A stretch of 46,859 bases of DNA, taken from positions 1-46,859 of the forward strand of contig JAUVXZ010000002.1 in assembly GCA_030603345.1 (NCBI GenBank), given 5' to 3'. Positions within the stretch are counted from its first letter, which is position 1, and each line of letters opens with the position of its first letter. The position numbers were made by a program, and so were the translations under genes. The DNA comes from Pseudomonadota bacterium (GTDB taxonomy: Bacteria; Desulfobacterota; DSM-4660; Desulfatiglandales; B25-G16). Below the pieces are notes generated by a model that worked only from the letters and a program-made list of their open reading frames with translations, was not told where the DNA came from and did not search any database. This document shows positions 6,944 through 39,571 of this stretch, piece by piece.

Positions 6944-7094
6944 TCTATACAGTTAACTTGAAGCGAAAAAGATCAAATAATTCTGTGGGATGGGGACCAG
7001 TTTAGTGGGAGGAAGGATTCGCCCGATAATTGCGGCACAGAGAGTTGTACATCCAACCTAGCCCTTCGAAAGTGAATTGAGGAGGCGTTGGACA

Positions 7095-8486
7095 ATGAGT
7101 ATAGCACGAGAGCTCGCAAAGAGCGCAAACAGCTTGATCTTTGAAGATGTACCATCCGATGTGATCCACCAGACAAAACGCCTTGTGCTTGACACGCTTG
7201 GCTGCGCTATAGGCGGCTATAGGAGTGAGGCGAGTAGGATCATTCAGGAAGTCGTGAAAGAATTAGGTCATTCTGAGGAGGCAACAGTTTTCGGCAGCGG
7301 GCTGAGAACATCGTGCCTGAACGCCGCACTGGCTAATGGTGCCATGGTTCGCTACCTCGACTACAATGATACCGCCTTTATGATCCAGGGGGAGACCTAC
7401 AGAACCGGCTACCACCCCAGTGAGGTCATTCCCCCGATACTAGCGTTGGGCGAACGGCAACATTTGCCAGGAAAGAGCATCATAACAGCTATTAATTTGG
7501 GCTACGACCTATCGCTGGCCTTCCTGGAAGGTGTCATCGGCACGGGGATGGAGAAGAGGGGGTGGAATGGTGATACGAGGGGTGCATTTATAATGCCTCT
7601 CGTAGCCGGTAAAATCCTCGGCCTTGCTGAGGAGCAGATGGAAAGCGCAGTGGGCATAGCGGGTAGTTGCCATGCCGTGTTGGGCATCCTCGATACCCCA
7701 GCAGAAGAATATACTATGACGAAGAACATACGGTTCCCTATGGTGTCTTATGGGGGAATCTTGGCGGCCATGCTTGCCCAAAAGGGATTCACCGGTCCCG
7801 CCAGCATAATAGAGGGGCACGATGGCTTTGTTGAAGTCATCATGGGTGGAGACTATGATGTTGAAAGGCTATTAGGATTTAAGGGTAAGTTTGCTATCCG
7901 CGAGACCTGTATCAAGTCAATTATCGCTGACTTTTCCTCTCACGGTCATTTGACAGCGACGCTGACCCTTGCACGGGAACACGACATAAAGCCCGAGGAC
8001 GTTATCGAAGTCAGGATTACCACAAGCAAACGGTGTGCTGAGCACACTGGTGATCCGGTAAAAAAGTACCCAAAAAACAAGGAGACAGCTGACCATAGTT
8101 CCTATTACCTCACTGCCATTGCCATAATAGACCGCGAAATAGGGCCGGACCAATTCACCCCTGAAAAGTATAATGACCCTAAAGTGCGAGAACTCATTGA
8201 TAAGGTCGTCCTCCAAGGTGATCCCAAATTAGATAAATTTCGACCCGCTGGTATTTCGGAAATCATCACTAAGCAAGGCAAGAAGTATAGTCTTCGGGTG
8301 GACCATCCTAGAGGACACGCCCGCAATCCCATGACGGATGAAGAAGTTGTGGACAAATTCAAAAGCATGGCTTCAAAGTGCATGAGTGAAGACCATGTGG
8401 ATCAAGTCATCGACACCGTTTTTACTTTAGATAAGCTGGACGACATTGGAAAACTTAATAGGCTTATGGCCTTTAGAGACAGTTGA
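7095..8486 (+). CDS. MmgE/PrpD family protein, paralogue 1 (2-methylcitrate-dehydratase-like subtype)
   Basis: About 463 aa from the ATG at 7095 (GAGGAGG upstream). N-terminus 'FEDVPSDVIHQTKRLVLDTLGCAIGG', 'YLDYNDTAF', and C-domain 'KETADHSSYY'. Confidence 0.85.
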   Translation: MSIARELAKSANSLIFEDVPSDVIHQTKRLVLDTLGCAIGGYRSEASRIIQEVVKELGHSEEATVFGSGLRTSCLNAALANGAMVRYLDYNDTAFMIQGETYRTGYHPSEVIPPILALGERQHLPGKSIITAINLGYDLSLAFLEGVIGTGMEKRGWNGDTRGAFIMPLVAGKILGLAEEQMESAVGIAGSCHAVLGILDTPAEEYTMTKNIRFPMVSYGGILAAMLAQKGFTGPASIIEGHDGFVEVIMGGDYDVERLLGFKGKFAIRETCIKSIIADFSSHGHLTATLTLAREHDIKPEDVIEVRITTSKRCAEHTGDPVKKYPKNKETADHSSYYLTAIAIIDREIGPDQFTPEKYNDPKVRELIDKVVLQGDPKLDKFRPAGISEIITKQGKKYSLRVDHPRGHARNPMTDEEVVDKFKSMASKCMSEDHVDQVIDTVFTLDKLDDIGKLNRLMAFRDS

Positions 8487-8575
8487 AACAGATAGGCTGA
8501 GGTTCACCATTCGCTGGCATGAGCTTGCAAAGTAAGAGGTAATTGACACAGGTGTTTGATATAAGAATTTCGTTT

Positions 8576-8601
8576 AAGACAAAGTTTGTCTAACTTGTCT
8601 T
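8576..8601. promoter_or_regulatory. Palindromic AGACAAA-G-TTTGTCT plus an extra AACTTGTCTT arm, upstream of the CoA-ligase genes; candidate operator or weak hairpin
   Basis: There is a perfect 7-bp-arm palindrome at 8577-8591. The following AACTTGTCTT can pair with AAGACAA(A)GTT. The site is 67 nt upstream of the ATG at 8668. Confidence 0.2.
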
Positions 8602-8667
8602 TTGATTCGGCTGAGCTGCCGCTTACCACCCAGCTTCCGAATTGTTGAAATACTACGGAGATCACAT

Positions 8668-9951
8668 ATGGCAAGAATTTATGAATACCAGGGGAAAGAG
8701 ATGCTCGCAAAGGTAGGTATTCCTGTCCCCAAAGGGAGATGTGTAGAAAGTGCTGACGTGGCCAGAAATGCAGCCGATGATATCGGAAAGCCAGTTGTTG
8801 TAAAGGCCCAGGTTTGGGTGACCGGGCGTTTAAAAGCAGGAGGCATCAAATTCGCCAAAACGCCTGAGGAGGCTGAAAAGGCTGCCAAAGAGCTCATTGG
8901 TAGCGAGATTAAGGGGCTGATCGTAGGAAAGGTGCTGATTGAAGAGCAACTTGAGGTTGATAGGGAGCTTTATGTCGGCGTAATCGTGAGTAATTCATTC
9001 AAGGTAAAAGGACCAGTACTGATAGTGAGCAGTGAGGGAGGTGCATCTATTGAAGAGGTTTCTCAGAGAAATCCTGAGAGGATTGCTCGGTTGAATGTTG
9101 ACTACCTACAGGGTGTAGGATCTGAGGAGGCAAACCAATTGCTATCGAATGTATCTTTCAATGGCAGGGACTTGTCTAAAGAGCTAACTCACGAACTGGC
9201 AGAGGTTATTTCCAATGTCTATAAGGCCTTTACCCAATATGACGCCAGGGCTCTGGAAGTCAATCCTTTAGTCTTAACCAAGGACAACCGTATTATTGCC
9301 GCTGATTGCCATCTTACGCTTGATGATAACTCCGTGTTTCGGCATCCCGAGTTGGGCATAAAGGTGCCTCGTGACATGGACAGACCACCGACTGGGTTGG
9401 AACAGAGAGCCTGGATGACCATAGAAGAGGGCGATTATCGAGGAACAGGGTACTTCGCACAGATGGTAGCAAAAATAGAAGGCGACAGCTGGCTTGGGTT
9501 TCATGGCATAGGTGGTGGCGGCGCCATGCTCGGAGCCAGCGCATTTGTGGCACGGGGCTTTAAAATCGCCAACTATGCAGACACCAGTGGAGATCCTCCA
9601 GCCAGCAAAATCTACAGCGTGATTAAATACATCCTGTCACAACCCATTGACGGCTATGTCCTGATGGGGGCCACCCTTGCCAATCAGGAGCAATGGCATC
9701 ATGCTCATGCACTTGTGAAGGCGTTTAAAGAAGAGGCTGAAAACAGGCCAGGATTTCCTGTGATCATGCTGCTTGCAGGGAACAAGGAAGAGGAGGCGCA
9801 CGATATAATAAAGAGCGAATTTAAGGACTTGCCACTACGGTGGGAATTGTACGGCAGAGAGTATATTTACAATACAGATTTCATTGCAGATAGGGTGGAA
9901 GAGTTGGTTAAGGCCTATCAGATGGAGAGGCGCACGGCGCAGAAGGAGTAG
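8668..9951 (+). CDS. NDP-forming acyl-CoA synthetase beta-like (ATP-grasp) subunit; succinyl-CoA synthetase / malate thiokinase / citryl-CoA synthetase superfamily
   Basis: The N-terminus 'MARIYEYQGKEMLAKVGIPVPKG...VVVKAQVWVTGRLKAGGIKF' parallels SucC 'HEYQAK...VVKAQV..GGRGKAGGVK'. ATG at 8668 follows GGAG. At about 427 aa it is longer than a typical SucC. Confidence 0.8.
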   Translation: MARIYEYQGKEMLAKVGIPVPKGRCVESADVARNAADDIGKPVVVKAQVWVTGRLKAGGIKFAKTPEEAEKAAKELIGSEIKGLIVGKVLIEEQLEVDRELYVGVIVSNSFKVKGPVLIVSSEGGASIEEVSQRNPERIARLNVDYLQGVGSEEANQLLSNVSFNGRDLSKELTHELAEVISNVYKAFTQYDARALEVNPLVLTKDNRIIAADCHLTLDDNSVFRHPELGIKVPRDMDRPPTGLEQRAWMTIEEGDYRGTGYFAQMVAKIEGDSWLGFHGIGGGGAMLGASAFVARGFKIANYADTSGDPPASKIYSVIKYILSQPIDGYVLMGATLANQEQWHHAHALVKAFKEEAENRPGFPVIMLLAGNKEEEAHDIIKSEFKDLPLRWELYGREYIYNTDFIADRVEELVKAYQMERRTAQKE

Positions 9952-9958
9952 TGGTGCA

Positions 9959-10249
9959 ATGGCTGCGAATAGACTAGAGCTTGAAACAAGAAAGACTAAG
10001 ATCACTATTGACTACAGCCGGTGTCTTCCCGCAATGGAAAACACGTCAGATCCAGCCTGCAGATTTGCCTGTGTAAAAGCATGTCGATTATATGGCCGAA
10101 ATATCTTAAAAATTGAGGAGAATAGACCCGTGCTGGCAGTCAAGGACCCTGAAGAAATAAAAAGGTTGGATAATGAGTGTATTAGCTGTGAGTACAACTG
10201 CCAGCGGTATGGTGCTGGGTGTATCAGCATTGAAATCCCTTTGCAATAG
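9959..10249 (+). CDS. Small cysteine-rich (8 Cys) ferredoxin-like protein of unknown function
   Basis: About 96 aa from the ATG at 9959, preceded by AGGAG at 9944-9948. It has two Cys groups, 'C..(11)..CRFACVKAC' and 'CISCEYNCQRYGAGC'. It sits exactly between the beta-like and alpha-like ligase subunit genes. Confidence 0.6.
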   Translation: MAANRLELETRKTKITIDYSRCLPAMENTSDPACRFACVKACRLYGRNILKIEENRPVLAVKDPEEIKRLDNECISCEYNCQRYGAGCISIEIPLQ

Positions 10250-10281
10250 CGGAGGTAAGCTCTCGGTAGGAGATAGCTATT

Positions 10282-11187
10282 ATGCCAGTGTTGATTGATG
10301 AAAATACACGAATGCTTATCCAGGGTATTACTGGAAGGTTTGGGCAGGGTGTAGCCAGGCGTATGATAGAGGTGGGTTCCAAGGTAGTTGTTGGGGTTAC
10401 GCCGGGCCGGGGTGGTCAATCTGTTTGGGGCGTAGCGGTTTATGATACCGTGAAAGAAGCATTAGAAGCGGTTGGATCAGTGGATGCAGCTGTTACGGTC
10501 GTACCAGGTCCGGAGGCCAAGGGAGCAGTGATAGAGGCCTTTGAAGCAGGGATAAAAACAGTTCTGATGCGCGTAGAAAGGGTGCCTCTGCATGATTCCC
10601 TTGAGATCATTGCCCATGCCAAGAAACATGGGATAAGACTGATTGGCCCGGGTTCAGCAGGAGTAGTGAGCCCTGGAAAGGCTTCTTTGGGTGGGTTAGG
10701 CGGCTTTATGGGTTCTTCAGATTTGCCGAGAATAGCCTTCAAACCTGGCCGGATAGGTGTCATCTCGCGCAGTGGCGGGCAAACCTCTACCTTGAGCTGG
10801 GCTGTTTGCAGTGCTGGGTTTGGGATTAGCACAGCCGTTCATTTGGGTTCCGAGCCAGTTTTGGGAACAACATTGCCGGAACTGCTTCCTCTGTTTCAAG
10901 AAGATGACCAGACGGATGGAGTAGTGTATTTTGGGGAGATCGGAACCGTTATGGAAGAGGAGGCCACAGAGGTGATTAAAGCCGGAGGTTATACAAAGCC
11001 GTTGGTGGCATACATAGCAGGCAAAGGTCTTCCTTCAGGATTACGGTTTTCTCATGCCAGTGCTATTGTAGAAGGTGGGAAAGGAACAGCAGAAGGGAAG
11101 ATTATGGCATTTAGAGAGGTTGGAGCCCATGTTGTTGACAGACCGGAAGATATCGGGCCTGCTTGCCAAAGGGTTTTCGGAAAATAG
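10282..11187 (+). CDS. NDP-forming acyl-CoA synthetase alpha-like (CoA-binding, phosphohistidine) subunit
   Basis: 'LIQGITGRFG' is a CoA-binding Rossmann-like N-terminus. 'ISRSGGQTSTL' matches SucD 'SRSGTLTYE'. 'SHASAIVEGGKGTAEGK' matches the SucD phosphohistidine loop 'GHAGAI', and the His is retained. Confidence 0.8.
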   Translation: MPVLIDENTRMLIQGITGRFGQGVARRMIEVGSKVVVGVTPGRGGQSVWGVAVYDTVKEALEAVGSVDAAVTVVPGPEAKGAVIEAFEAGIKTVLMRVERVPLHDSLEIIAHAKKHGIRLIGPGSAGVVSPGKASLGGLGGFMGSSDLPRIAFKPGRIGVISRSGGQTSTLSWAVCSAGFGISTAVHLGSEPVLGTTLPELLPLFQEDDQTDGVVYFGEIGTVMEEEATEVIKAGGYTKPLVAYIAGKGLPSGLRFSHASAIVEGGKGTAEGKIMAFREVGAHVVDRPEDIGPACQRVFGK

Positions 11188-11222
11188 CCAGTCGATAGCG
11201 GTTTAGTTGCGGGAGGACTTTG

Positions 11223-12182
11223 ATGGTGAGAATACTGAGATCAATGCTGTATGTTCCGGCAAACAGCTGGCGAATGATCATTACTGCTGTGTCTGAGGGA
11301 GCAGATGCGGTTATCTTAGACTTGGAAGACGGGTGTCCAATGGCTGAAAAGGAGACAGGCAGAGTTTTTGCCAGGGATTCCCTCTCTATGTTAAAGGAGC
11401 AAGGCCTTGAAGTTTATGTCCGGGTAAATTCCCTTGAGACAGGCCTACCGGAGATAGATATCAGCTATGTGGTGACTCAGGGGCTTGACGGCATTATGCT
11501 CGCCAAGACAGAGTCAAAAGAGGACATCATCAGTCTTGATAAGCTTATAGAAAAAGAAGAGCAGAAAAAGGGACTCGAGTTAAACAGTATTACTCTCATT
11601 GCTCTTATTGAAACTCCGAGGGGGATTCTGAACCTACCCCAGATTATTGCTGCTGGCCAACGCATAGAAGCTGTAGCCTTCGGTGCAGGAGATTTCTCGC
11701 GAGAGATGGGCGCTGGGATGGGGGTCACTAAGTTATCGCCTGAGGAGTATTTTCCCATGGTTCTTCATGCACGATCGAGCATCGCCATGGCAGCAAGGGC
11801 AGCAGGCATTCAAGCCATAGATACACCCTTTTTTGGGTTGGTCATAGATCTTGAGGGGCTTGCAAGAGAATCGGAAAAAGCCAAGCTGCTGGGATTTTCA
11901 GGGAAGCAAGTGACTCATCCTCGGCATGTGGCTGTAGTCAATGAGTGTTTTTCACCGGCTAAAGAAGATGTTGATTTTGCTAAACAAGTCGCAGAGGCCT
12001 ATAACGCTGCAAGAGCAAAAGGATTGGGAGCTACAACTTTGGGTGGGAAGATGATCGACTATGGTTCATTCAAGCGGGCAGAGGGTCTTTTGTCATTGGC
12101 TGAGGCGATAGAAAAAAAAGAGAAGAAGAAGTCAGAAGAACAATCACGGGGGAGGTCCGATTTCAGCGACTCCCCGGTGTGA
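11223..12182 (+). CDS. HpcH/HpaI aldolase - citrate lyase beta (CitE)-like acyl-CoA lyase (malyl-/citramalyl-CoA lyase type)
   Basis: 'SMLYVPANSWRM' and 'AVILDLEDG' are typical of the CitE family. The ATG at 11223 is 6 nt after GGAGG. The protein has an unusual Lys/Glu-rich extended C-terminal tail, '...AIEKKEKKKSEEQSRGRSDFSDSPV'. Confidence 0.8.
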   Translation: MVRILRSMLYVPANSWRMIITAVSEGADAVILDLEDGCPMAEKETGRVFARDSLSMLKEQGLEVYVRVNSLETGLPEIDISYVVTQGLDGIMLAKTESKEDIISLDKLIEKEEQKKGLELNSITLIALIETPRGILNLPQIIAAGQRIEAVAFGAGDFSREMGAGMGVTKLSPEEYFPMVLHARSSIAMAARAAGIQAIDTPFFGLVIDLEGLARESEKAKLLGFSGKQVTHPRHVAVVNECFSPAKEDVDFAKQVAEAYNAARAKGLGATTLGGKMIDYGSFKRAEGLLSLAEAIEKKEKKKSEEQSRGRSDFSDSPV

Positions 12183-13151: not shown

Positions 13152-13277
13152 TGCTCACTCTAAAACTGGCAAGCGTGTCGGTAGACTGCAGCGATCAGGC
13201 TGAGTGCTACGGTTAATAAAGGATTAAGGCTGGAGTAAAAGAATCACTGAAAACAGATTTTGTGGAGAAGGTTGGCT

Positions 13278-14429
13278 ATGTTTTTCAATATAGCGCTGTA
13301 TGTTTCGCTGATCATTTTCATCATTGGATTGATTTATAAATTATGGACATGGTTCCACAAAGATGTCGGAATGGGCGAGAAAGAGATTTCAGCCTACAAA
13401 AGGCTTTTCTCTGCTATCAAAGGAATACTGGCGACTGTGTTTAGTGGAAAAATCGTTACCCTTATTAAGGTTTTTGTGCTTGATGTCATCTTGCAATTAC
13501 GAATCCTAAAGGACAGTGAGGACCGCATTCTCTGGATCATGCATATACTTATTTTTGTCGGCTTTATTCTGCTTCTCCTTATGCATGCTTTGGGCAATAT
13601 TGTTACTTCCTATCTTTTCCCTGAGTATCAATCCACGCTGAATCCTTTCTTGTTTCTGCGGAACCTCTTTGGCCTATTCGTTATCGTCGGGTTGCTGCTG
13701 GCTATTGTCCGGAGGGCCTCGCTCAAAAGGGGTCAGTTCAGGACAACTGGTATGGACTATTATGTTATTGTGATCTTAGCCCTAATCGTTATTTCAGGTT
13801 TCCTGCTTGAAGCAGCAAAGATAAGCTCCTATTCCGCCTACCAAAGAATGGTGGAAGACTATGCTTCAGCGACAGAGGACAGTGAAGCTCAAGCTTTAGA
13901 GGCTTTTTGGGTAGTGAACTTTGGAGTCGTGTCTCCCAAAACACAGATGCCTTTTTCAGCTGAAATGCTGGTGCAGGGAAAGGAATTGCACGAGATGAGC
14001 TGTGCCTCCTGCCATTCCAGGCCTCAATCGGCTTTTATTTCTTACGGAGTGAGCAAGGCTATAAAGTCCATTGCTCTAAGAGTGGATAGGGTACGGGTCG
14101 ACACCTTGCTGTGGTATATTCACTTCCTGTCCTGCTTTGTCGGCCTCGCCTATCTCGCTTTTAGCAAAATGTTTCATGTTTTTGCTACACCGGTTAGCCT
14201 TTTGATTAATGCAGTAACAGAAATTGGAAAAGAAAGCCCTGCCAATGTAGCCACAAGACAGATGATCGAACTTGACGGGTGCAGCCATGGCGGGATCTGC
14301 CATATGGAATGTCCTGTCTGGAGAAAAAGACAGGAAAGAATAAACAGGTCGAAACCATTTGGTCCGATGCTGGGCTACGTTAGTGAGAAGGACTGGAAGG
14401 AGCTGGGGAACCGTTTCTATGAGGAGTAG
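13278..14429 (+). CDS. Integral membrane redox subunit, NarI/DsrM-like di-haem cytochrome b type, with an extra CxxCH motif and a C-terminal Cys cluster
   Basis: About 6 predicted TM helices. His pairs occur in helices 'WIMHILIFVGFILLLLMHAL' and 'WYIHFLSCFVGLAYLAFSKMFH'. A soluble insert carries 'CASCH', and the C-terminus carries 'CSHGGICHMECP'. ATG at 13278 follows GGAGAAGG. Confidence 0.6.
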   Translation: MFFNIALYVSLIIFIIGLIYKLWTWFHKDVGMGEKEISAYKRLFSAIKGILATVFSGKIVTLIKVFVLDVILQLRILKDSEDRILWIMHILIFVGFILLLLMHALGNIVTSYLFPEYQSTLNPFLFLRNLFGLFVIVGLLLAIVRRASLKRGQFRTTGMDYYVIVILALIVISGFLLEAAKISSYSAYQRMVEDYASATEDSEAQALEAFWVVNFGVVSPKTQMPFSAEMLVQGKELHEMSCASCHSRPQSAFISYGVSKAIKSIALRVDRVRVDTLLWYIHFLSCFVGLAYLAFSKMFHVFATPVSLLINAVTEIGKESPANVATRQMIELDGCSHGGICHMECPVWRKRQERINRSKPFGPMLGYVSEKDWKELGNRFYEE

Positions 14430-14583
14430 ACTCGGGTCGTTCTAGAAACTTGTTCGAAAAGCGGGGGATGCATTTTGATAAACAATAGAGGGGAATTGAG
14501 TAAGGTTGTTATTGTTTGGGTACCGCAGACTGCTGCGTGCGATAGCACTTACTGGCATATGACAATCTCATCATCCGGGGAGA

Positions 14584-17157
14584 ATGAGGATGATTCAAGA
14601 TAGGCAACACATAAGGAGAGGCAAAGACGTCTGGGTACCCACTGTATGCGCAGGCTGTTACAACTGCTGTGGCGTACGGGTGCATCGGGTGAATGGAAAA
14701 GTCGTGGAAGTTGTCGGCGATCCCAAGGCGTCAAATTCAAAGGGGTATATCTGTGCAAAAGGTATTTGCCGAGCTCTGGACCTTCATCACCCTTCTCGAG
14801 TCGTCAAACCCCTGAAGCGTACAAACCCTGAAAAGGGGATTGGTGTGGACCCCAAGTGGGCGGAGATCTCATGGGAAGAAGCACTGGACACCATTACCGA
14901 GAAACTGGGTAAGGTCAGGGAGGAAGATCCACGCAAACTCATTATCTCTCACTTTGATATATCGGCTTATAAACCCACTATCGCCTTTGCTTTGGCTTAT
15001 GGGACGGTGAACTTTATTTGGAATAGAGCAGACTACTGCGGTTCTGCTTCCCACCCTGTTTGGCTCATCACCAATGGAGCCTTGAATTCCGAAATAGATT
15101 TTGAGTACTGCAAATATTTCATCTTGTGGGGGACCCAGCTAGGTCATGTCGTGAACACGATACCACTTGTCTCGGGTCATGCTCTGGCAGAGCGAAGACG
15201 ACAAGGTGCCAAACTTGTAGTAGTTGACCCGTTTTGCTCGAACGCTGCTGCTAAAGCTGACGAATGGCTACCACTCAAGCCAGGGACGGATGGGGCGCTT
15301 GCTTTGGCCATGTTGAACATAATGGTTTACGAACTGGGAATTTATGACGTGGATTTCCTCAAGCACCAGACAAATGGTCCCTACCTTGTTCAGCCAGATG
15401 GTCACTATTTGAGGGACGAAGAATCAGGCGAGCCCCTTGTCTGGGATCTTAGTGATGGCAGAGCCAAACCTTATGACGCTGATGACCTGAAAGACCCGGC
15501 CATCGAGGGTAATTACGAGGTGGCCGGAGGGAGTTACAGACCTGCCTTTCACGTGCTGAAAGATCACCTTGGTCAGATTGATGTGGACGAGATGTCAAGG
15601 ATCTGTACCATCCCAATCGAGAGAATTAGGAGTATCACCAAAGAGTTCTGTGAAGCAGCGAGAATAGGCAGTACCATCGAAATCGAAGGGCACAAACTCC
15701 CGTTAAGGCCAGCTGGCATTGATTTCAAGAGGGGCGCCGCAGCCCACAAGGGTGGATTTAATACTTGTTTTGCTATTCACTTGATTAATCTTCTTGTTGG
15801 AGCAATTGACGTGCCGGGAGGACAGAGAGGCGTAAACCCGCAGGGGCCCTATTGGAGCGCAGAAACAGGCCCAGATGGGCTCCTCGTGCCCTCTGATGTT
15901 ATTACAAAATACAATAAGCCCTACCCAGGCAGGCAAGCCAAGATTCCAGAGCATCTGGACCTACAGGAGCTTTTCCCGGCGGCTTTGTTTACTCGAGGGT
16001 TATACCCCTGGGGAATCGATAATCCGGAAGTGTTTGGAATTCCTTACAAGCCGGAAGTCATGCTTCACTCCCGTTCAAATCTGATGTTAAACAGCCACAA
16101 CCCTCATGCAATGGCCGAAACTCTGAAGAAGCTTAAGTTCCAGGTCTCCATGGTGATGTTCATTGATGAAACCGCAGAGTTCGCTGACATCATCCTGCCA
16201 GATGCCCATGAATTTGAGAGATGGGATATTTTCCCTGCCAATGATCCTTATGCTTTCATAGCGCCCGGTCCAGGTGAGTGGTATTGGTTGATGAGACAAC
16301 CTGTTGTTGAACCTCCCGAGGGGACTAGACCGTTTCTCGAGGTCTACTTTGAACTCGCCGAGAGGCTGGGCATTTTGGACGAGATGTACCAAATCGGTAA
16401 TGACTCCTGGGTAATAGATGAACAGTACAGATTTGAAAAAGGTAAAGAGTACACCATCAGGGACATAGCGGAAAGGCAAGCTAAGACAATCCTTGGGCCT
16501 GACTTCAGCTGGGACCGGCTTCAGGAGACATCATGCATGGTCAGCCGGAAAAAGACCATTGAGGAGGCCTTCCCGCGGATGTTTTTCAAATCTCGGGTCC
16601 CGATATATCTAGAATACTTGCTCAAACACGGGAAAGATGTAAAGGCGGTTACCGATGAATTGGGTCTTGAGTGGGACTTCACCCCTTACAGCCCGGTGCC
16701 GGTATGGATCCCCTGTGAAGCCCACGCTGATGATGAAGGATACGATCTGATTGTCACGAATGGTAAGGTCCCTACTCATCAGTTTTCTGTCACTACAGAG
16801 AATCTGTGGATAGACGAGATTGCCGTCCGTAATCCCTATACTTACAGCGTCATGATCCACACTTCTGTGGCAGAAAAGAAAGGCTTAGAGACTGGGGATA
16901 AGGTGTGCGTAGAATCGAGGTACGGAAAGGTTACCGGGCGGCTCATGGTTACAGAGCTTATTCACCCTGAATGTATAGGGACGTGTGGCACGTTTGGACA
17001 TTGGGCTAAAGGAATGCCTATTTCACTGAATAAAGGTGTCTCACATAATCAACTCTTGCCGCCACCGAGCTTAAAGAGAATAGATACCTTAACTGGCCAG
17101 ATAGATACGTGTATTAGGGCCAAAATCTATAAAGCAGGGGAAAGAGACGATGCCTAG
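14584..17157 (+). CDS. Molybdopterin (Mo/W-bisPGD, DMSO-reductase superfamily) oxidoreductase catalytic subunit, no Tat signal
   Basis: 857 aa with an N-terminal FS0 motif, 'VCAGCYNCCGV...ICAKG'. The overall layout is COG0243-like. There is no hydrophobic signal after 'RRGKD'. The start could be the second ATG at 14590. Confidence 0.8.
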   Translation: MRMIQDRQHIRRGKDVWVPTVCAGCYNCCGVRVHRVNGKVVEVVGDPKASNSKGYICAKGICRALDLHHPSRVVKPLKRTNPEKGIGVDPKWAEISWEEALDTITEKLGKVREEDPRKLIISHFDISAYKPTIAFALAYGTVNFIWNRADYCGSASHPVWLITNGALNSEIDFEYCKYFILWGTQLGHVVNTIPLVSGHALAERRRQGAKLVVVDPFCSNAAAKADEWLPLKPGTDGALALAMLNIMVYELGIYDVDFLKHQTNGPYLVQPDGHYLRDEESGEPLVWDLSDGRAKPYDADDLKDPAIEGNYEVAGGSYRPAFHVLKDHLGQIDVDEMSRICTIPIERIRSITKEFCEAARIGSTIEIEGHKLPLRPAGIDFKRGAAAHKGGFNTCFAIHLINLLVGAIDVPGGQRGVNPQGPYWSAETGPDGLLVPSDVITKYNKPYPGRQAKIPEHLDLQELFPAALFTRGLYPWGIDNPEVFGIPYKPEVMLHSRSNLMLNSHNPHAMAETLKKLKFQVSMVMFIDETAEFADIILPDAHEFERWDIFPANDPYAFIAPGPGEWYWLMRQPVVEPPEGTRPFLEVYFELAERLGILDEMYQIGNDSWVIDEQYRFEKGKEYTIRDIAERQAKTILGPDFSWDRLQETSCMVSRKKTIEEAFPRMFFKSRVPIYLEYLLKHGKDVKAVTDELGLEWDFTPYSPVPVWIPCEAHADDEGYDLIVTNGKVPTHQFSVTTENLWIDEIAVRNPYTYSVMIHTSVAEKKGLETGDKVCVESRYGKVTGRLMVTELIHPECIGTCGTFGHWAKGMPISLNKGVSHNQLLPPPSLKRIDTLTGQIDTCIRAKIYKAGERDDA

Positions 17158-17752
17158 GTATGGCATGGTAATTGATTTGAAAAAGTGCATTGGTTGCTAC
17201 TCTTGCGTGGTTGCATGCAAGGCTGAGCACAACACACCAAATGGCCTCTTTCAGACCACTGTTCTTGAAAAGGAGCTCGGTAGATTTCCCAACTCAATAC
17301 GAGTCTTTATGCCGGTCTTGTGTAACCATTGCGAGGAAGCAACCTGCGTAGATGTTTGCCCAACAGAGGCAACATACAAGAGGGATGACGGCGTGGTCAT
17401 GATTGATTTTGACAAATGTATCGGATGCGGCGCCTGCATCGAGCATTGCCCTTACCACGCCCGTGATTTTGTTGTCGATGATAGAACAGTCTTCCCTGAC
17501 GGAAAGACCGTCTTCGTAAAGCCTGTCTATCAAAAGATACCAAAGAAGGTGGCGCTCAAGTGTGATTTTTGCTTCTATAGAGTGGAAAAGGGTCTTTTAC
17601 CTGCGTGCGTAGAAGTGTGCCCCACTGCAGCGAGAATTTTTGGGGACGTGGAAGACACCAAGAGTGAGGTCCACGAACTGATGGAAAAGTACAGCGCTTG
17701 GACCATGTTGCCCGATGAGGGGACAAAGCCCCAAGTTTACTATATTGGATAG
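17150..17752 (+). CDS. 4Fe-4S ferredoxin-type electron-transfer (beta) subunit (DmsB/PsrB/NrfC-like)
   Basis: Starts 'MPRYGMVIDLKKCIGCYSCVVACK'. Four Cys groups: 'CIGCYSCVVAC', 'CNHCEEATCVDVCP', 'CIGCGACIEHCP' and 'CDFC...CVEVCP'. It overlaps the alpha subunit by 8 nt. Confidence 0.9.
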   Translation: MPRYGMVIDLKKCIGCYSCVVACKAEHNTPNGLFQTTVLEKELGRFPNSIRVFMPVLCNHCEEATCVDVCPTEATYKRDDGVVMIDFDKCIGCGACIEHCPYHARDFVVDDRTVFPDGKTVFVKPVYQKIPKKVALKCDFCFYRVEKGLLPACVEVCPTAARIFGDVEDTKSEVHELMEKYSAWTMLPDEGTKPQVYYIG

Positions 17753-17849: not shown

Positions 17850-19208
17850 ATGCAGAGGTTTTCTTCAATATACGCGGACTTTGTTGTGAATACCCGCTAC
17901 GATGATCTAGAACCAGAGGTCATTCACCAGGCCAAGAAGTTAATTCTGGATTTGATGGGCGTGTCTTTAGCTGGGTATCAGCTCATGGAGTTTCCCCGCA
18001 TGGTTGTTAGTTACATGGCTGACCTTGGGGGGAGACCTGAAGCAACCATAATCCATACAAAAAAGAAATTTCCTGCTGTGAATGCCGCCCTAGCCAATGC
18101 AGCGTGCGCCCATGCACTGGATATGGATGATGGCCATCGTTTTGCAGCACTCCACCCTGGCACAGTTATCATACCAGCCGCTATTGCTGCAGCAGAGCTA
18201 TCGGAAGCTGGTACGAAGGAAATGATAACGGGGGTCGTGGTCGGCTATGAGGTAATGATACGGATAGGCATGGCTATTAATCCGTCCAGTCTGAATAGAG
18301 GTTTTCATATCACCGGCATAACTGGTCCTTTCGGAGCAGCAGCTGCGGCAGCAAAGATCATGGGTCTGAACCTTGTGGAAACTATTGATGCGTTTGGCAT
18401 AGCGGGCTTACAGCAATCCGGACTCATACAGGTCAACCATGAGGTTGAAGGCGCTATGGTAAAACCCATAAATCCGGCTAAGGCGGCCATGTCGGGCCTT
18501 CTGTCCTCCATCCTTGCCGAAAAAGGAGCCAAAGGCCCGCTCCATATCTTCGAGGGTAAAGATGGGTATCTTAAGGCAGTGGCAGATGAAGTGGACAGCG
18601 ATCTTTTGACTCGTGATCTGGGGCGGAAATTCGAAATTCTCAACGTTTACCTTAAACTCCACGCTGCTTGTCGCCACGCCCATGCTTCAATGGATGCTGC
18701 CTTAAAGGCGTTTAGGGAGAGTGGCATTGACGTCACGGAAATAGAGGAAATCTCTATTGAGACCTATCCGGCTGCCATTAGGCTTGCCGGCATAACCAAG
18801 GTGACTGCGCCGTCAGGAGGTCGATTTAGTATTCCGTTCTCCGTGGCCTTGGCTTTGATAAAGCAGGATGCAGGTGCTGACAAATATTCCGAGGAAAACG
18901 TTCGGGATCAAACCATCCAAGCCCTTGCCGGAAAAGTGGTTTTAGCGGTAGGGAGCAAGTGGGAGAGATTGTATCCTGAGAAGAGGGGAGCCACGGTGAA
19001 CATAACCAACGCCAATAACAAGACATGGTCTGCCGAGGTGGAATTGGCTAAAGGCGAACCAGAAAATCCAGCCAGTTGGGAAGAGATCTATACCAAATTT
19101 CATACTAATGCGACGTTACTGATCTCCGAGAAGGATGCCAAAGAACTGGTTGACACTATTATGAATTTGGAAAACGCCTCACTTGGCGAGTTCCTTGAGC
19201 TTATCTAG
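17850..19208 (+). CDS. MmgE/PrpD family protein, paralogue 2 ('LDMDDGH' subtype)
   Basis: 452 aa. N-terminus 'YDDLEPEVIHQAKKLILDLMGVSLAG', then 'ALDMDDGHRF', and 'RFSIPFSVALA' in the C-domain. Confidence 0.85.
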   Translation: MQRFSSIYADFVVNTRYDDLEPEVIHQAKKLILDLMGVSLAGYQLMEFPRMVVSYMADLGGRPEATIIHTKKKFPAVNAALANAACAHALDMDDGHRFAALHPGTVIIPAAIAAAELSEAGTKEMITGVVVGYEVMIRIGMAINPSSLNRGFHITGITGPFGAAAAAAKIMGLNLVETIDAFGIAGLQQSGLIQVNHEVEGAMVKPINPAKAAMSGLLSSILAEKGAKGPLHIFEGKDGYLKAVADEVDSDLLTRDLGRKFEILNVYLKLHAACRHAHASMDAALKAFRESGIDVTEIEEISIETYPAAIRLAGITKVTAPSGGRFSIPFSVALALIKQDAGADKYSEENVRDQTIQALAGKVVLAVGSKWERLYPEKRGATVNITNANNKTWSAEVELAKGEPENPASWEEIYTKFHTNATLLISEKDAKELVDTIMNLENASLGEFLELI

Positions 19209-20924: not shown

Positions 20925-22283
20925 ATGTCTGATTATCTTAACGAGATCTCTGCATTTGTCTGTCGATGTCAATTTGATGATCTCTCATCAATAGTTGTGG
21001 AACGTACTGGAGAGGTTATGGCGGATAGCCTGGCAGTGATCGGGGTCGGCGCTCAAGAGGAAGAAGTTAGGGCGATGACCGAGCGAATAGTCGTGCCTGG
21101 AGGCAAGCAGGTGACGACCCTTATCGGAGGTGGCACCCAGACAGAACCACTAAAGGCCGCTTTGATAAATGGCATGGCTGGAACATTCCTGGAATTGGAT
21201 GAAGGCAATCAGTTTGCGCGGGGTCATCCAGCCATTCACGTTATCCCCGCTGCTCTGGCCGTGGCAGAAGAAATGAACCTTTCTGGTCGAGAGCTTCTAA
21301 CCGCCCTGGTGTTGGGTTATGAGATTGCCGCTCGTATCGGCATTGCCTGCAAGATCCGGATGTCCATGCATCCTCATGGTACCTGGGGCACCGTAGGAGC
21401 TGCAGTCGCCGTGGGTAAGCTCATGGGTTATGACGAGGGAGCGATGCGGGAGATTATCAATGTGAGCTCATCCCTCGGCTTGGCGACGAGCCGTCGCACC
21501 ATGTTGGAGGGAGGTCTCGTTCGGAACGTCTATGCTGGTGTCAGTGGATACATGGGTATTCTGGCTCATGAACTCGTTCAGTCCGGCTTCACCGGTGAAG
21601 CGGATGGACTCCAAACTGTGTTTGGGACTGTTGTGTCTGATACTTTTGTGCCGGAGGAGATGACCAAGGATTTGGGCAGCCGATTTGAGATTGCCCGTAA
21701 TTATTTCAAGCGACATGCCTGCTGCCGGTATAATCACGCTACGCTGGACGCCCTTGGAGATATCATCGCTAAGGCACCGGGAGGGAGACTAAAGCCAGAT
21801 GAGGTGGCCAAAGTGGAGGTGGAGACGTATTCCTTAGCAGCACAGTTATGCGATCCAAATCCGGAAAATACGCTGGCAGGAAAGTTTTCCATCCCCTTTG
21901 CTGTGGCTACCTTTATTGTTAATGGCTCCACAGGAGTTGAAAGTTTTACACCGCGGGCCATTCAGAACCCCGTTGCCAGGGAATTGGCTCAACGGGTGAC
22001 GGTATCCGAGGATCTGGAGCTCACTGCCATGATGCCCGATCATAGGCCATCGAAGGTTAAGGTCACCCTTACCAATGGGACTGTTTTGGAGGCCCAAACC
22101 CTGACCAATAAGGGAGATTCGGAGGACCCGTATACTCCGGAGGAGCTCCGTGAGAAATACTATGAGCTGGCTGAGCGGGTTTGGAAACGGGAGATAGCAG
22201 AAGCGATCTATGCAGACGCTATGAATTTGGAAAAACTGGATAATATAAATGAGATGACCGCTCGAATGCGCCAGATAGGCTAA
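20925..22283 (+). CDS. MmgE/PrpD family protein, paralogue 3 ('GNQF..HPAIH / HPHGT' subtype)
   Basis: 452 aa. GGAGG lies 9 nt upstream. Motifs: 'LDEGNQFARGHPAIHVIP', 'HPHGTWGTVGAA', 'KFSIPFAVA'. Confidence 0.85.
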   Translation: MSDYLNEISAFVCRCQFDDLSSIVVERTGEVMADSLAVIGVGAQEEEVRAMTERIVVPGGKQVTTLIGGGTQTEPLKAALINGMAGTFLELDEGNQFARGHPAIHVIPAALAVAEEMNLSGRELLTALVLGYEIAARIGIACKIRMSMHPHGTWGTVGAAVAVGKLMGYDEGAMREIINVSSSLGLATSRRTMLEGGLVRNVYAGVSGYMGILAHELVQSGFTGEADGLQTVFGTVVSDTFVPEEMTKDLGSRFEIARNYFKRHACCRYNHATLDALGDIIAKAPGGRLKPDEVAKVEVETYSLAAQLCDPNPENTLAGKFSIPFAVATFIVNGSTGVESFTPRAIQNPVARELAQRVTVSEDLELTAMMPDHRPSKVKVTLTNGTVLEAQTLTNKGDSEDPYTPEELREKYYELAERVWKREIAEAIYADAMNLEKLDNINEMTARMRQIG

Positions 22284-22531
22284 CAAGAAAAGAAATTGGG
22301 TCTGAGAGGTCTACTTCACCGAGGGATACGGATCGATCGAGTTTCAGTTTCTGCGTGTAGGCCGAGTTCTTTAGGTTGAGGCGGCAAGCCAGGCCGGTAA
22401 ATGTTACCCTTGAGGCACAATTGCAAAAGCCACAAAGCCTCTTCATCTTAATGTGCTCCTTTCTCCTATCATGGTTAAAGCCCACGTCGATGTTGTAGTA
22501 ACCATCAAAAAACCGAATGGAGCAGTATGAC

Positions 22532-23965
22532 ATGCCTGGGTATGATTTGGTAATAAAGGGCGAAAACAGGGGCCCGAACGTGCCGGGAGTCGAAGGAGGT
22601 GCCGTTTCGCTCCTAGCAGATTATGCTGTCACCACTCGAATTGCGGACCTGCCTCCAGAGGTTATCGATCACGCACGGGTGGTTCTGCTCGACACGATGG
22701 GGGTCATTCTGGGTGGTTCGATAGAACCGGAGGTCTCGGCACTGGCGCACCGACTGGGACGGCGAAACGGTGGATCGAGCACTATCATCGGGCATGCGCT
22801 CTGGGCTAGCCCGTTAAATGCTGCTCTGGTAAACGGCACTGCAGGTACATGGTTGGATTTTGATTCAGGACACAGACCACCGCCAGGAAAACCCCTTTTG
22901 CCAGCTGCACATCCTCCAGTTCACTTAGTTCCAGCCACACTGGCGGTTGGCGAAGCGATGGGGGCCTCAGGGGCTGAGATCCTTGCAGCTTTGGTTGTGG
23001 GCTATGATGCCGGTGCGCGGATCGGCATGGCCAGCCGGCTCAGGGGCCAGATTCATCCTCACGGCACCCATCACAATGTGGGGGCCGCTGTAGCGGCCGC
23101 ACGGCTGAAGCGGTTTGACAGAGAGCGAATGGAGTCGACGATCGGCCTTGCTGCCCATCTTTCCCTCATGCCGTCCTTCGAGAATGCTTACCAAGGCCGC
23201 ACGGTGCGCAATACTTACGCTGGAGTCGGTGCAGCAGTGGGTATTTTGGCAACAGAACTGGCAGTAGCCGGGTTTACACCTGAGCGTAACGCTATTGGTT
23301 CGATATATGGAAGCATCCTCTCTCCTTGGTTAGATCCGGCACGGATTACAGAAGACCTAGGCCAGCGGTTCGAGATCACCCAAGGCTTTATCAAACCTTA
23401 TCCCATGTGTAGGTTTGGCCACCCAGCTGTCGAGGCGGCAGAAGCACTGGTTCGCCGACATCATATCCTTCCGGAGGAGATCGATACGGTAGAAGTCCGG
23501 ACATTTGATTGGGCTGCAACCTTGGACGATCCAGCGCCGAAAACAGACCTAGGGGCCAAATTTTCCATCCCATGGGCGGTGGCTTGTATGTTGGTGCGGA
23601 AGTCGGCTGGGCCGACCGACTTTAAGGAGGAAGTGCTTGTTGATACCGAGGTGAGTGCAGTTGCCGCACGGGTAACAGTAAGGGAGGACCCGAAGTATAC
23701 ATCCATGACACCGGCAAAGCGGCCCGCGAGCGTCACCGTGCGGACCAAGAAAGGCAGTATTCTCTCCTGGGAAGTAGAGCGCAGTGCTGGCGGTCCCGAC
23801 GCACCATGGCCCGTGGAAAAAGTGCAAGCGAAGTTCGGGTCCCTTGCGGACCCTATGATTGGTCCCGAAAAAGCCCTTGCCGTGGTTGACCTGATGACAG
23901 AACTCCATGACTTGTCAGATATTCGTGAGCTAACGAGGCTTTTAGTGCCCACTGGCTCCACTTGA
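22532..23965 (+). CDS. MmgE/PrpD family protein, paralogue 4 (same subtype as 3, 5 and 7)
   Basis: 'HPHGTHHNVGAA', 'KFSIPWAVA', and N-terminus 'IADLPPEVIDHARVVLLDTMGVILGG'. The ATG at 22532 has GGAG 9 nt upstream, but the track start at 22517 is also possible. G+C is visibly higher than in neighbouring genes. Confidence 0.8.
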   Translation: MPGYDLVIKGENRGPNVPGVEGGAVSLLADYAVTTRIADLPPEVIDHARVVLLDTMGVILGGSIEPEVSALAHRLGRRNGGSSTIIGHALWASPLNAALVNGTAGTWLDFDSGHRPPPGKPLLPAAHPPVHLVPATLAVGEAMGASGAEILAALVVGYDAGARIGMASRLRGQIHPHGTHHNVGAAVAAARLKRFDRERMESTIGLAAHLSLMPSFENAYQGRTVRNTYAGVGAAVGILATELAVAGFTPERNAIGSIYGSILSPWLDPARITEDLGQRFEITQGFIKPYPMCRFGHPAVEAAEALVRRHHILPEEIDTVEVRTFDWAATLDDPAPKTDLGAKFSIPWAVACMLVRKSAGPTDFKEEVLVDTEVSAVAARVTVREDPKYTSMTPAKRPASVTVRTKKGSILSWEVERSAGGPDAPWPVEKVQAKFGSLADPMIGPEKALAVVDLMTELHDLSDIRELTRLLVPTGST

Positions 23966-25766: not shown

Positions 25767-26468
25767 TTACCCGAAGGCCTGTGGGCCAAGTTTTGATCTC
25801 AGCTCTTCCATCACCTCTTCGGAACTTCGTACTTTTCCGAACAGCCTCTGGAAAGTTACCAGGGTTGCCTCATGATACTCAGGCTGGGAGGCCCCGCACC
25901 CATCATCGACTAATACACACCGAAATCCCCTGTCCGCCGCCTCACGGGCCGTGGTTTCCACACACATGTTGGTCGAAACACCAGTGAAAAGCAGATATCT
26001 CAAGCCTCTCGCCCACAGGATGGAATCTAAATTCGTTGAGCTGAAGGCGCCTATGGCTGTCTTGTTGATAACCGTTTCTCTGGGTTTCGGTCTGATTTCT
26101 TCTAAGATACTGTTTTCCGGCGTTCCCACCCTATTGTTGCACGATTGAAGCAGCATCTTTACATGGGGCAATGCGTCACTGTAGTCAGGTGAGCGTGATC
26201 CCATGGTCAAATAAACGACCACCTGGTGGTGTTTCCGAAAGAATGAGAGCAATCGTTGGATGGTTGGAACAACAACACCTTCGATGCGATCGTATCGGTA
26301 TTTGGCCAGATTATCCTTTCCTTGTTCCCGGAGCAGTCTTCCTAAACCTGTTTTTCTGCTTGCCGTGGCATATTGCATATCCACTAAAATGAGAGCCGTA
26401 GAACTTGCTTCTAGTTCAAAATCGGTGGTGAATTCGGCAATATAATCATTTCTAACACTGGGGATCAT
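25767..26468 (-). CDS. Isochorismatase-family cysteine hydrolase (amidase/ureidoacrylate-amidohydrolase-like)
   Basis: 'ALILVDMQYA' carries the catalytic Asp region and 'TGVSTNMCVETTAREA' the catalytic Cys region. 233 aa, with AAGGGGG upstream. Confidence 0.8.
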   Translation of the reverse strand: MIPSVRNDYIAEFTTDFELEASSTALILVDMQYATASRKTGLGRLLREQGKDNLAKYRYDRIEGVVVPTIQRLLSFFRKHHQVVVYLTMGSRSPDYSDALPHVKMLLQSCNNRVGTPENSILEEIRPKPRETVINKTAIGAFSSTNLDSILWARGLRYLLFTGVSTNMCVETTAREAADRGFRCVLVDDGCGASQPEYHEATLVTFQRLFGKVRSSEEVMEELRSKLGPQAFG

Positions 26469-35787: not shown

Positions 35788-35789
35788 CC

Positions 35790-39306: not shown

Positions 39307-39571
39307 TTGTGGTAGCGTCTTAAAGGAACACTCTGTCTGATTTGTTTTTTCATTTCAATATGTTAATTCATAACAAGAAGGAGCCCCTTGCCACTTTAAT
39401 ACATCTGGAAGCATTATTTTTTGCCCGTTTACCTTGTAGGTATGCTAGGAAATTTGAATTGTGGAATTTTAACCAAGAGGTTTTACTATGTCCAAGAATG
39501 GTACTACGTCAGAAGGAACGAGGCATTACTCCCAGCGACCAAAGCTAGAGTCAGGCGCCGGAGAAGCCCAT

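Follow-up and report, generated by a model that had tools for sequence, protein, structure and literature searches.

A predicted cytoplasm-facing molybdenum or tungsten oxidoreductase with a NarI-like anchor carrying a haem-c motif, from a Desulfobacterota contig

Three adjacent genes at positions 13,278 to 17,752 of a 46,859-nt stretch of DNA (contig JAUVXZ010000002.1, positions 1 to 46,859, assembly GCA_030603345.1, assigned to Desulfobacterota; the whole of this stretch is hereinafter called the window) are predicted to encode a membrane-bound complex of a membrane (gamma) subunit, a catalytic (alpha) subunit carrying molybdenum or tungsten on bis-pyranopterin guanine dinucleotide (Mo/W-bisPGD), and an iron-sulfur (FeS, beta) subunit. 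We propose, with a probability of about one half, that this oxidoreductase of an uncharacterised clade faces the cytoplasm and oxidises an organic acid or CoA ester, sending the electrons outward; the proposal is based on sequence comparison, structure models and gene context. Each part by itself (bisPGD enzyme, four-cluster protein, NarI-type cytochrome) is of a known kind. Their combination, the haem-c loop in a NarI-type protein, the vestigial HdrC motif, the replacement of the anchor and a catalytic clade of uncultured organisms only appear to be undescribed, and in the searchable literature neither this enzyme nor any NarI-type protein with a CxxCH loop was found described.

Predicted architecture of the complex

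The alpha subunit matches the Pfam domains for Fe4S4 (PF04879, 37.6 bits), molybdopterin (PF00384, 101.1 bits) and dinucleotide binding (PF01568, 44.0 bits), each above its cut-off, and is predicted to belong to the Mo/W-bisPGD (dimethyl sulfoxide, DMSO, reductase) superfamily, as an enzyme of the complex iron-sulfur molybdoenzyme type. The four cysteines of cluster FS0, recognised already in a preliminary description of this DNA, show no variation among 30 homologues belonging to several phyla, and the same is true of Cys152, the predicted metal ligand, whose identification the same description had proposed as a check. Mean column identity among these homologues is 68%, with many invariant residues in the pterin domains. 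From the invariant metal ligand, FS0 and pterin-domain residues, the subunit is predicted to be likely catalytic.

Membership of the alpha subunit in a named family was rejected, as every NCBIfam cut-off is missed. The best match is PhsA (NF012032, 247.9 bits, cut-off 694), the second best QrcB (151 bits, cut-off 440); further scores are 141 bits for TIGR03479 (cut-off 985), 133 for ArrA (1600), 130 for the DmsA-type family (778), 42 for EbdA (NF042978, 2000) and 41 for NarG (TIGR01580, 1084). Thus, the curated cut-offs for nitrate, DMSO, thiosulfate/polysulfide, tetrathionate, arsenate, formate and ethylbenzene enzymes are all out of reach, in agreement with the initial remark that none of the classical nitrate, DMSO, polysulfide, tetrathionate or formate enzymes is matched. 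The AlphaFold2 (AF2) model of the subunit (predicted local distance difference test, pLDDT, 82; predicted template modelling score 0.88) has the standard fold; Foldseek finds ArrA, PcrA, Nap and PsrA at probability 1.00, with template modelling scores of 0.72–0.77 for ArrA and 0.66–0.76 for PsrA. The nearest solved structures (ArrA, PcrA, Nap, acetylene hydratase and PsrA) share at most 22% identity with it, and the best PDB sequence match is PsrA (E 6.9e-43, 22% identity to 2vpw).

The catalytic site is predicted to face the cytoplasm, as was suggested at first from the lack of a signal peptide. An in-frame stop lies just 8 codons upstream of ATG 14584, so that no twin-arginine translocation (Tat) leader can be restored by an earlier in-frame start, an event that would have overturned the suggestion. 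The first FS0 cysteine is preceded by 19–21 hydrophilic residues without a hydrophobic stretch, and the arginine pair found there is not conserved, relatives having KKGDD, IKGDD or VKGDD. A Tat-like leader on the Mo subunit was seen in none of about 45 related loci. Moreover, the FeS subunit opens straight on its first cluster motif, without a signal peptide, and thus cannot carry the complex out of the cell either. This subunit, rightly taken for a four-cluster protein at the outset, has 16 cysteines in four [4Fe-4S] motifs and no transmembrane (TM) helix, and its gene follows the Mo gene in every locus.

The gamma subunit scores 32.3 bits against the Pfam NarI domain (PF02665, cut-off 22.9), and shows weak likeness to the membrane halves of QmoC (35.7 bits, cut-off 300) and TmcC (22.4 bits, cut-off 240). 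Hydropathy gives clear helices at residues 1–19, 84–102, 126–144, 162–180 and 277–301, and a charged hydrophobic segment at 45–77; about five TM helices and a cytoplasmic amphipathic segment are favoured, and the six-TM topology proposed initially is set aside as a poorer fit, while the likeness to NarI stands. Lysines and arginines are absent from the loop 103–125 and number five in the loop 145–161, which places the former outside and the latter inside, and hence the 96-aa loop in the periplasm and the 82-aa tail in the cytoplasm. The predicted topology is therefore that of NarI, with the CxxCH loop on the periplasmic and the Cys tail on the cytoplasmic side; the equivalent loop of NarI is periplasmic.

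The two histidine pairs, H89 with H103 and H282 with H300, are invariant in an alignment of 24 gamma sequences, and by analogy with NarI the proximal haem b may be held by His89/His300, and the distal one by His103/His282. The loop, first measured as about 95 aa, carries a CxxCH motif (C242-x2-C245-H246), which is invariant in the same alignment and is retained in all 119 close homologues covering the region and in each of the 16 distinct syntenic copies; among the full-length representatives of 50%-identity clusters, down to about 31% identity, essentially every one has it. We predict it to be a covalent haem-c site on the periplasmic side; the invariant Met191 of the same loop is, speculatively, a possible sixth ligand. 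This haem c could feed periplasmic cytochromes or tune the distal site.

The C-terminal C-x5-C-x3-CP, also pointed out previously, is equally constant. C335, C341 and C345 are invariant in the alignment, and the pattern C[SR]HGGxCHxxC(P) occurs in 16 out of 16 distinct syntenic copies, one of them having R for the final P. Every full-length gamma relative examined, again to about 31% identity, keeps the four haem-b histidines, CxxCH and this motif, and from such conservation both CxxCH and the Cys cluster are judged to be under selection. Most gamma relatives are 555–600 aa long; at the position of CSHGGxCHxxCP they have CTHCGTCxxRCS, followed by three further full CxxCxxCxxxC motifs. In the short form the second Cys and everything beyond the first motif are lost and His337 is retained, leaving a single three-Cys motif compared to four full motifs in the 581-aa relatives, so that gamma lacks the full HdrC-type two-cluster domain. 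Since the long relatives carry such a domain at the same position, the tail is best read as a vestigial HdrC-type ferredoxin motif; a profile search gives a weak match of this stretch to the TYKY/NuoI ferredoxin motif. The tail could bind a cluster alone, with the help of the histidine, or shared with the FeS subunit. Profile searches of gamma against PDB yield non-significant matches only (ferredoxin motifs, cytochrome c haem sites and NarI). The gamma-type membrane module comprises at least 137 clusters at 50% identity (E <= 1e-30) and constitutes an undescribed cytochrome family.

Long forms of 581–590 aa, with a NarI-like domain, a CxxCH loop and a full HdrC-type domain, are encoded at three related loci (L007, positions 8001-9773; L008, 226-1998; L009, 3256-5013; L numbers denote loci compared with the window). 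They stand first in operons with HdrB (CCG), a selenocysteine-interrupted HdrA, MvhD and a selenocysteine-containing FdhAB, which look like membrane-anchored Hdr/Fdh complexes with a haem b/c anchor.

All three genes are co-oriented on the plus strand. The mechanical open reading frame (ORF) of the membrane protein spans 13260-14429, with TTG 13260 as its first start; ATG 13278 is preferred, because the ribosome-binding site GGAGAAGG is placed at the right distance upstream of it and the resulting 383 aa equal the length of the homologues. For the Mo gene, the ribosome-binding site GGGGAG suits ATG 14590 better than ATG 14584, and the former yields a protein as long as its closest homologues (855 aa). 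The Mo and FeS genes overlap by 8 bases. The gamma and alpha genes are separated by 155 nt, in which prediction of terminators and promoters gives nothing above background, and no molybdenum cofactor riboswitch or other RNA was found within the window.

Distribution of the family and its two anchor types

A genome scan with one genome per species returned 51 loci, all of them from metagenome-assembled or single amplified genomes (MAGs or SAGs). The Mo and FeS subunits form a tight family (56–82% identity), seen in the MAGs and SAGs of the scan only; tblastn on plasmids of cultured organisms gives relatives of 30% identity at best, bearing generic names only. The gene order, anchor, Mo, FeS, is the same in every locus, with the gamma gene always immediately upstream of the Mo gene, and a reverse search from three other short-form membrane proteins found adjoining Mo and FeS genes in three loci out of three.

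The anchor itself differs. In about 30 loci, mostly from Rhodospirillaceae, Burkholderiales and gammaproteobacterial MAGs, it is an NrfD/PsrC-like protein that lacks haem and is about 290 aa long, and the Mo subunits are 56–63% identical to that of the window. The NarI/haem-c anchor is present in 16 distinct loci from Desulfobacterota, Acidobacteriota/Vicinamibacterales and Spirochaetota, with Mo identity of at least 65%. In the neighbour-joining tree the Mo subunits with the latter anchor are monophyletic and nested among the NrfD-anchored ones; a NrfD-anchored Desulfobacterales sequence is their sister, and the NrfD-anchored Sporomusa enzyme falls outside. The simplest reading of this tree would be that, on a single occasion, a module taken over from the Hdr-associated cytochrome family displaced the NrfD anchor. 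The NrfD-type anchor on most catalytic pairs, the NarI/haem-c module in Hdr/Fdh operons and the truncated HdrC-type origin of the Cys cluster are additions to the preliminary description.

One NarI/haem-c complex, 77% identical to that of the window, lies on a 7.6-kb contig binned as “uncultured Burkholderiaceae” (L010, CAYGXL010000125.1). It groups with Desulfobacterota in the tree, hence a binning error is probable.

Gene neighbourhood and environmental occurrence

The complex is embedded in a plus-strand cluster (Table 1), initially described as an organic-acid cluster with a short-chain dehydrogenase/reductase (SDR) next to the complex. Many of the related loci do point to catabolism of organic acids and CoA esters; the SDR, on the contrary, is not conserved at other loci and was rejected as a partner. 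The block of PrpD, SucC, small ORF, SucD and CitE genes precedes the complex, in part or as a whole, in L004, L011, L065 and L066, the run being full in L066, and in L065 and L066 cyclic amidohydrolases and a GntR/UTRA regulator are also found upstream of the complex. The small ORF of the window, located between the SucC-like and SucD-like genes, encodes 96 aa with 8 Cys (CxxxCxxxC and CxxCxxxCx6C) and has no Pfam match; it occupies the same position at 73–78% identity in L004 and L011, and ORFs of 95–96 aa are there in L065 and L066.

In 19 other loci, with both anchor types, a three-subunit enzyme of the xanthine dehydrogenase family is encoded near the complex. It scores best as the alpha subunit of 4-hydroxybenzoyl-CoA reductase (4-HBCR; 750–778 bits, cut-off 995), and two different molybdoenzymes appear to be linked in one pathway in these loci. 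Further neighbours there are AMP-binding or ACD-type CoA ligases, a CoA transferase, acyl-CoA dehydrogenases, enzymes similar to old yellow enzyme (OYE) or FadH, and hydantoinase- or allantoinase-like amidohydrolases. A FAD_binding_2 gene directly follows the FeS gene in about 11 loci, again with both anchor types; in the window it is two genes downstream. The common thread of these neighbourhoods suggests that carboxylic acids are processed in the cytoplasm in the form of CoA thioesters, often following ring opening of a cyclic amide.

Several other features of the window deserve mention. It contains seven MmgE/PrpD paralogues, each with both Pfam domains and none reaching the cut-off for 2-methylcitrate dehydratase; this expansion is unusual and suggests a family of related polycarboxylate substrates. 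On the opposite strand there is a second possible membrane redox system, which consists of a fused 4Fe-4S dicluster and cytochrome b561 (Ni_hydr_CYTB) protein and a separate pair of FAD_binding_2 (547 aa) and FeS (237 aa) proteins, both surrounded by genes for a LeuCD-like aconitase, a LeuB-like dehydrogenase and a class-I fumarase-like enzyme. Further products encoded in the window are an isochorismatase-like amidohydrolase, whose best matches are BiuH and RutB, a GntR/UTRA regulator, an octopine-dehydrogenase-like protein, a hydantoinase/dihydropyrimidinase-like amidohydrolase (344 bits, cut-off 393) and a CN-hydrolase; this set suggests that a cyclic amide or an N-substituted acid is broken down. 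The cluster that holds the complex also encodes an aldehyde:ferredoxin oxidoreductase of the tungsten type (AFOR_N and AFOR_C domains). The organism thus probably uses tungsten, and the bisPGD enzyme may carry either Mo or W.

Near-identical DNA is present in more than 20 metagenome runs from marine sediment, cold seep, subsurface and freshwater. Metatranscriptome contigs from four runs of three studies match parts of the Mo gene (15.2–16.8 kb) at 95% identity or more, and match as well the SDR, SucD/CitE and PrpD genes; the membrane gene is outside their coverage, and they say nothing on its absence. The Mo gene and its neighbours are transcribed in situ, unless the contigs stem from DNA carry-over in the RNA libraries.

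Table 1. Coordinates of the complex, of its predicted functional sites and of neighbouring genes (positions in the window unless a locus is named)
Feature	Position	Strand	Remarks
Membrane (gamma) subunit gene	13278..14429	+	383 aa; ATG 13278
His89 and His103, TM II	13542..13586	+	proposed haem b axial ligands (proximal, distal)
96-aa loop, residues 181-276, TM IV to TM V	13818..14105	+	predicted periplasmic
CASCH (C242, C245, H246)	14001..14015	+	predicted haem-c attachment motif
His282 and His300, TM V	14121..14177	+	proposed haem b ligands; H-x17-H as NarI His187/His205
CSHGGICHMECP	14280..14315	+	predicted cytoplasmic C-x5-C-x3-CP with conserved His337; putative cut-down first motif of HdrC-type ferredoxin domain
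Mo/W-bisPGD (alpha) subunit gene	14584..17157 (or 14590..17157)	+	857 aa or, more likely, 855 aa
FS0 [4Fe-4S] motif of alpha	14647..14754	+	C22-x2-C25-x3-C29-x27-C57
Cys152 of alpha	15037..15039	+	predicted Mo/W ligand; aligned with Mo ligand Cys173 of Thermus PsrA
FeS (beta) subunit gene	17150..17752	+	200 aa; PF13247
Cys of the four beta motifs			residues 13/16/19/23, 58/61/66/70, 90/93/96/100, 138/141/153/157
Cluster before the complex		+	in order: Liv-type ABC transporter, W-type aldehyde oxidoreductase, PrpD-like, SucC-like, 96-aa 8-Cys ORF, SucD-like, CitE-like lyase, SDR
Aldehyde:ferredoxin oxidoreductase	4802-6817	+	tungsten-type
Upstream partners	7077..12182	+	PrpD-like, SucC-like, 96-aa 8-Cys ORF, SucD-like, CitE-like acyl-CoA lyase (Pfam/NCBIfam)
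96-aa 8-Cys ORF	9959-10249	+	
Cluster after the complex		+	in order: PrpD-like, TcuA/flavocytochrome-c-like flavoprotein, three more PrpD-like
MmgE/PrpD paralogues	7077-8486, 17850-19208, 20925-22283, 22517-23965, 24007-25383, 39488-40942	+	
MmgE/PrpD paralogue	28579-29973	-	
Second possible membrane redox system	27584-28564, 35074-37433	-	
Isochorismatase-like through CN-hydrolase gene set	25767-26468 (-), 38139-38903 (-), 41243-42349 (-), 43110-44474 (+), 44818-45675 (+)	both	
Xanthine-dehydrogenase-family enzyme, examples	L005 2420-6168, L006 4940-8701, L048 2174-5919		

Relation to known enzymes and proposed function

In its layout the complex resembles NarGHI, which also has three subunits, with catalytic and four-cluster subunits in the cytoplasm without a Tat signal, and a NarI-family cytochrome b with two His pairs, the second of them spaced as H-x17-H, for transmembrane electron transfer. 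A NarI-family dihaem gamma subunit with a cytoplasmic alpha-beta pair is thus what we observe, but the alpha subunit is not of the NarG type: it has about 855 aa against 1250, a Cys ligand in place of Asp, a classical Cys4 FS0, and a NarG score far below the cut-off. The beta subunit has four Cys4 motifs, so that no [3Fe-4S] cluster is predicted, the 96-aa CxxCH loop and the Cys tail are not present in NarI, and the gene order here is gamma-alpha-beta. The topology, called reversed in the preliminary description, is unusual only relative to the class of ethylbenzene dehydrogenase (EBDH) and steroid C25 dehydrogenase (S25DH): NarGHI is already cytoplasm-facing and membrane-bound, and PadBCD and SoeABC are other such enzymes of the superfamily.

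The comparison with EBDH, S25DH and resorcinol hydroxylase, made at the same time, finds no support in the sequence. These enzymes have in common with the complex the Mo-bisPGD cofactor and a four-cluster beta subunit, and act on organic substrates with water as the oxygen source, but the EBDH/S25DH class is periplasmic, Tat-exported, type II, has Asp as the metal ligand, and has a gamma subunit that is soluble and carries haem b. The alpha subunit studied here has neither the EbdA equivalog score nor the Asp ligand nor the Tat signal of the type II enzymes, and its match to pyrogallol transhydroxylase (E 3.9e-8) is confined to a short stretch.

As a functional analogy for the proposed oxidation, PadBCD serves best; it oxidises the alpha-carbon of a CoA thioester, and so acts in the cytoplasm, with electrons going to quinone. 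In Thauera and Aromatoleum it is a membrane-bound three-subunit Mo-FeS phenylacetyl-CoA:acceptor oxidoreductase (PMC5109826). Compared by description rather than by sequence, the orientation is the same, and a CoA-ester substrate of the present complex is suggested by the neighbours alone (CoA ligases, the lyase, acyl-CoA dehydrogenases, and 4-HBCR-like enzymes). The Pad genes are from cultured denitrifiers, whereas the present family is found in MAGs only. Nor is PadD known as a NarI-type haem b/c protein.

The membrane part resembles EMO, with its NarI-like five-helix haem-b domain and reverse loop driven by the membrane potential (bioRxiv 10.64898/2026.08.18.745454). With EMO, HdrDE, QmoC and TmcC it shares such a domain, short helices after TM I and TM IV, and a cytoplasmic HdrC-type FeS domain, and the 581-aa relatives of gamma, encoded with HdrB, HdrA, MvhD and Fdh, have the same layout of TM helices plus HdrC. 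The differences are the FeS domain cut to a single 3-Cys motif, the molybdoenzyme partner and the CxxCH loop; moreover, gamma has all four His, of which three are kept in EMO.

In the proposed scheme, a cytoplasmic organic acid would be converted to an acyl-CoA by the adjacent SucCD-like ligase and oxidised by the Mo enzyme, either by hydroxylation with water or by dehydrogenation; more speculatively, the hydroxyacyl-CoA product would then be cleaved by the adjacent CitE-like lyase. The substrate is probably an activated organic acid. Electrons may pass from Mo through FS0 and FS1–FS4 to the tail site, then to the proximal and distal haems b, and from there to a quinone site on the periplasmic side and/or haem c, crossing the membrane outward to menaquinone and/or periplasmic c-type cytochromes in a “reverse redox loop” assisted by the membrane potential, as described for the dihaem EMO. 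Substrate oxidation is favoured because a CoA ligase and a C-C lyase flank the complex in its catabolic operons, and because the NrfD-anchored sisters occur in ubiquinone-type Proteobacteria beside dehydrogenase-type genes. Outward transfer through two haems would spend membrane potential on reducing low-potential menaquinone, which would account for the change of anchor in menaquinone-type lineages. A narrower version is tentative: the enzyme might be a water-dependent C-H hydroxylase or dehydrogenase of acyl-CoA or organic acids in menaquinone-using anaerobes, with an anchor of two haems b and one haem c and a residual FeS site pushing electrons from a relatively high-potential substrate onto menaquinone by means of the membrane potential, or directly to periplasmic cytochromes. 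Haem c would then act like the second distal haem of the EMO “twin-haem”, and the haem b/c module would serve as a plug that is used again in Hdr/Fdh complexes.

Several points weigh against the proposed oxidation. Neighbourhoods vary between loci, so that no single conserved substrate is evident and no one compound can be named. The known C-H hydroxylases, EBDH and S25DH, are Asp-ligated type II enzymes not close to the alpha subunit, and Cys-ligated members of the superfamily mostly act on inorganic substrates. The AF2 model of gamma has pLDDT 64.7, and NarI, although ranking first in Foldseek, does so at E 0.27; the argument from quinone types leans on the taxonomic labels of MAGs, with L021 and L010 as exceptions. 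Finally, the flavocytochrome-c-like FAD, OYE/FadH-like and 4-HBCR-like neighbours belong to families that are often reductases, hence the electron flow could run the other way. A cytoplasmic reductase fed from outside, by menaquinol in a Nar-like loop or by periplasmic c-type cytochromes through a Tmc/Hmc-like conduit, with electrons moving inward via the b haems to an organic or inorganic acceptor (dehydroxylation, N- or S-oxide reduction), is a less probable but still credible alternative. It would have the NarGHI-like layout of a NarI-type anchor, a four-cluster subunit and a cytoplasmic catalytic subunit, a periplasmic haem c suited to input from the cytochrome c pool of sulfate reducers, and PsrA, PhsA, ArrA, PcrA and Nap, all reductases, as the closest relatives by sequence or fold. 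Yet the operons of the complex are catabolic, with CoA ligases and a C-C lyase rather than respiratory regulators or chaperones, the NrfD-anchored sisters with their dehydrogenase-type neighbours come from largely aerobic or marine Alphaproteobacteria MAGs, and no genes producing a candidate acceptor are evident.

The same closest relatives raise the question of a known inorganic enzyme acting in the cytoplasm. PsrABC, PhsABC and ArrAB provide the nearest alpha subunits by sequence (PsrA, PhsA) and fold (ArrA), with a Cys ligand, FS0 and a four-cluster beta subunit, and the sister clade of the present family has an NrfD-type anchor, as have Psr and Soe; these enzymes, however, are Tat-exported and face the periplasm, their identity to alpha is 21–22%, and the anchor here is of the haem-bearing NarI type. 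Neither the PhsA/PsrA equivalog score nor Tat export is found for alpha. SoeABC, a complex of Mo, FeS and membrane-anchor subunits facing the cytoplasm and passing electrons to quinone, is similar in layout. On a plasmid of Azospirillum brasilense (L062, NZ_CP012917.1, 6824-11530) an operon of Mo (998 aa, annotated “molybdopterin oxidoreductase family protein”), FeS and DmsC-type anchor genes adjoins the gene for sulfoacetaldehyde acetyltransferase (xsc), near an ATP-grasp/CoA-binding ligase pair and a TTT transporter, and is probably SoeABC in a sulfoacetate or taurine cluster. Identity with this presumed SoeABC was rejected on the basis of 28% sequence identity, the size, the gene order (alpha-beta-gamma there), and the context of xsc with the DmsC/NrfD-type anchor. 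Even though the host is probably a sulfate reducer, and hence a producer of sulfite, a sulfite:quinone dehydrogenase of the SoeABC type or a sulfur, arsenic or selenium enzyme similar to Psr, Phs, Ttr or Arr is very improbable: the scores fall far short of every curated cut-off, genes for sulfonate, arsenic or selenium metabolism are not found nearby, and the family occurs in no cultured genome of the scan, while cultured species commonly possess Soe, Psr, Phs and Arr. Hardly more credible is a non-catalytic or vestigial QrcB-like module that links a soluble flavoenzyme (FAD_binding_2, similar to TcuA, KstD or flavocytochrome c) to the quinone or cytochrome pool. The position of the FAD_binding_2 genes relative to the FeS gene and the rank of QrcB among the NCBIfam matches agree with it, and dehydrogenases of the TcuA type do require an FeS/haem partner in the membrane, but the flavoenzyme is missing from most loci, and the conservation of Cys152, the FS0 cysteines and both pterin-binding domains, invariant or strong, argues for a working catalytic site.

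Anaerobes relying on low-potential menaquinone have to oxidise substrates whose electrons are too “high” for this quinone, and one known solution is a dihaem anchor that draws on the membrane potential, as in EMO and in succinate dehydrogenase of Bacillus. The locus considered here suggests the same trick grafted onto a molybdoenzyme, with an NrfD anchor giving way to a NarI-type haem b/c anchor, and such a swap would be a clear natural experiment in the modularity of respiratory enzymes. The catalytic family is widespread in MAGs from sediment, soil and marine habitats, repeatedly near genes for CoA-ester, cyclic-amide and 4-HBCR-like enzymes, and may be the sign of a so far unrecognised step by which organic acids or heterocycles are broken down anaerobically and in the sea.

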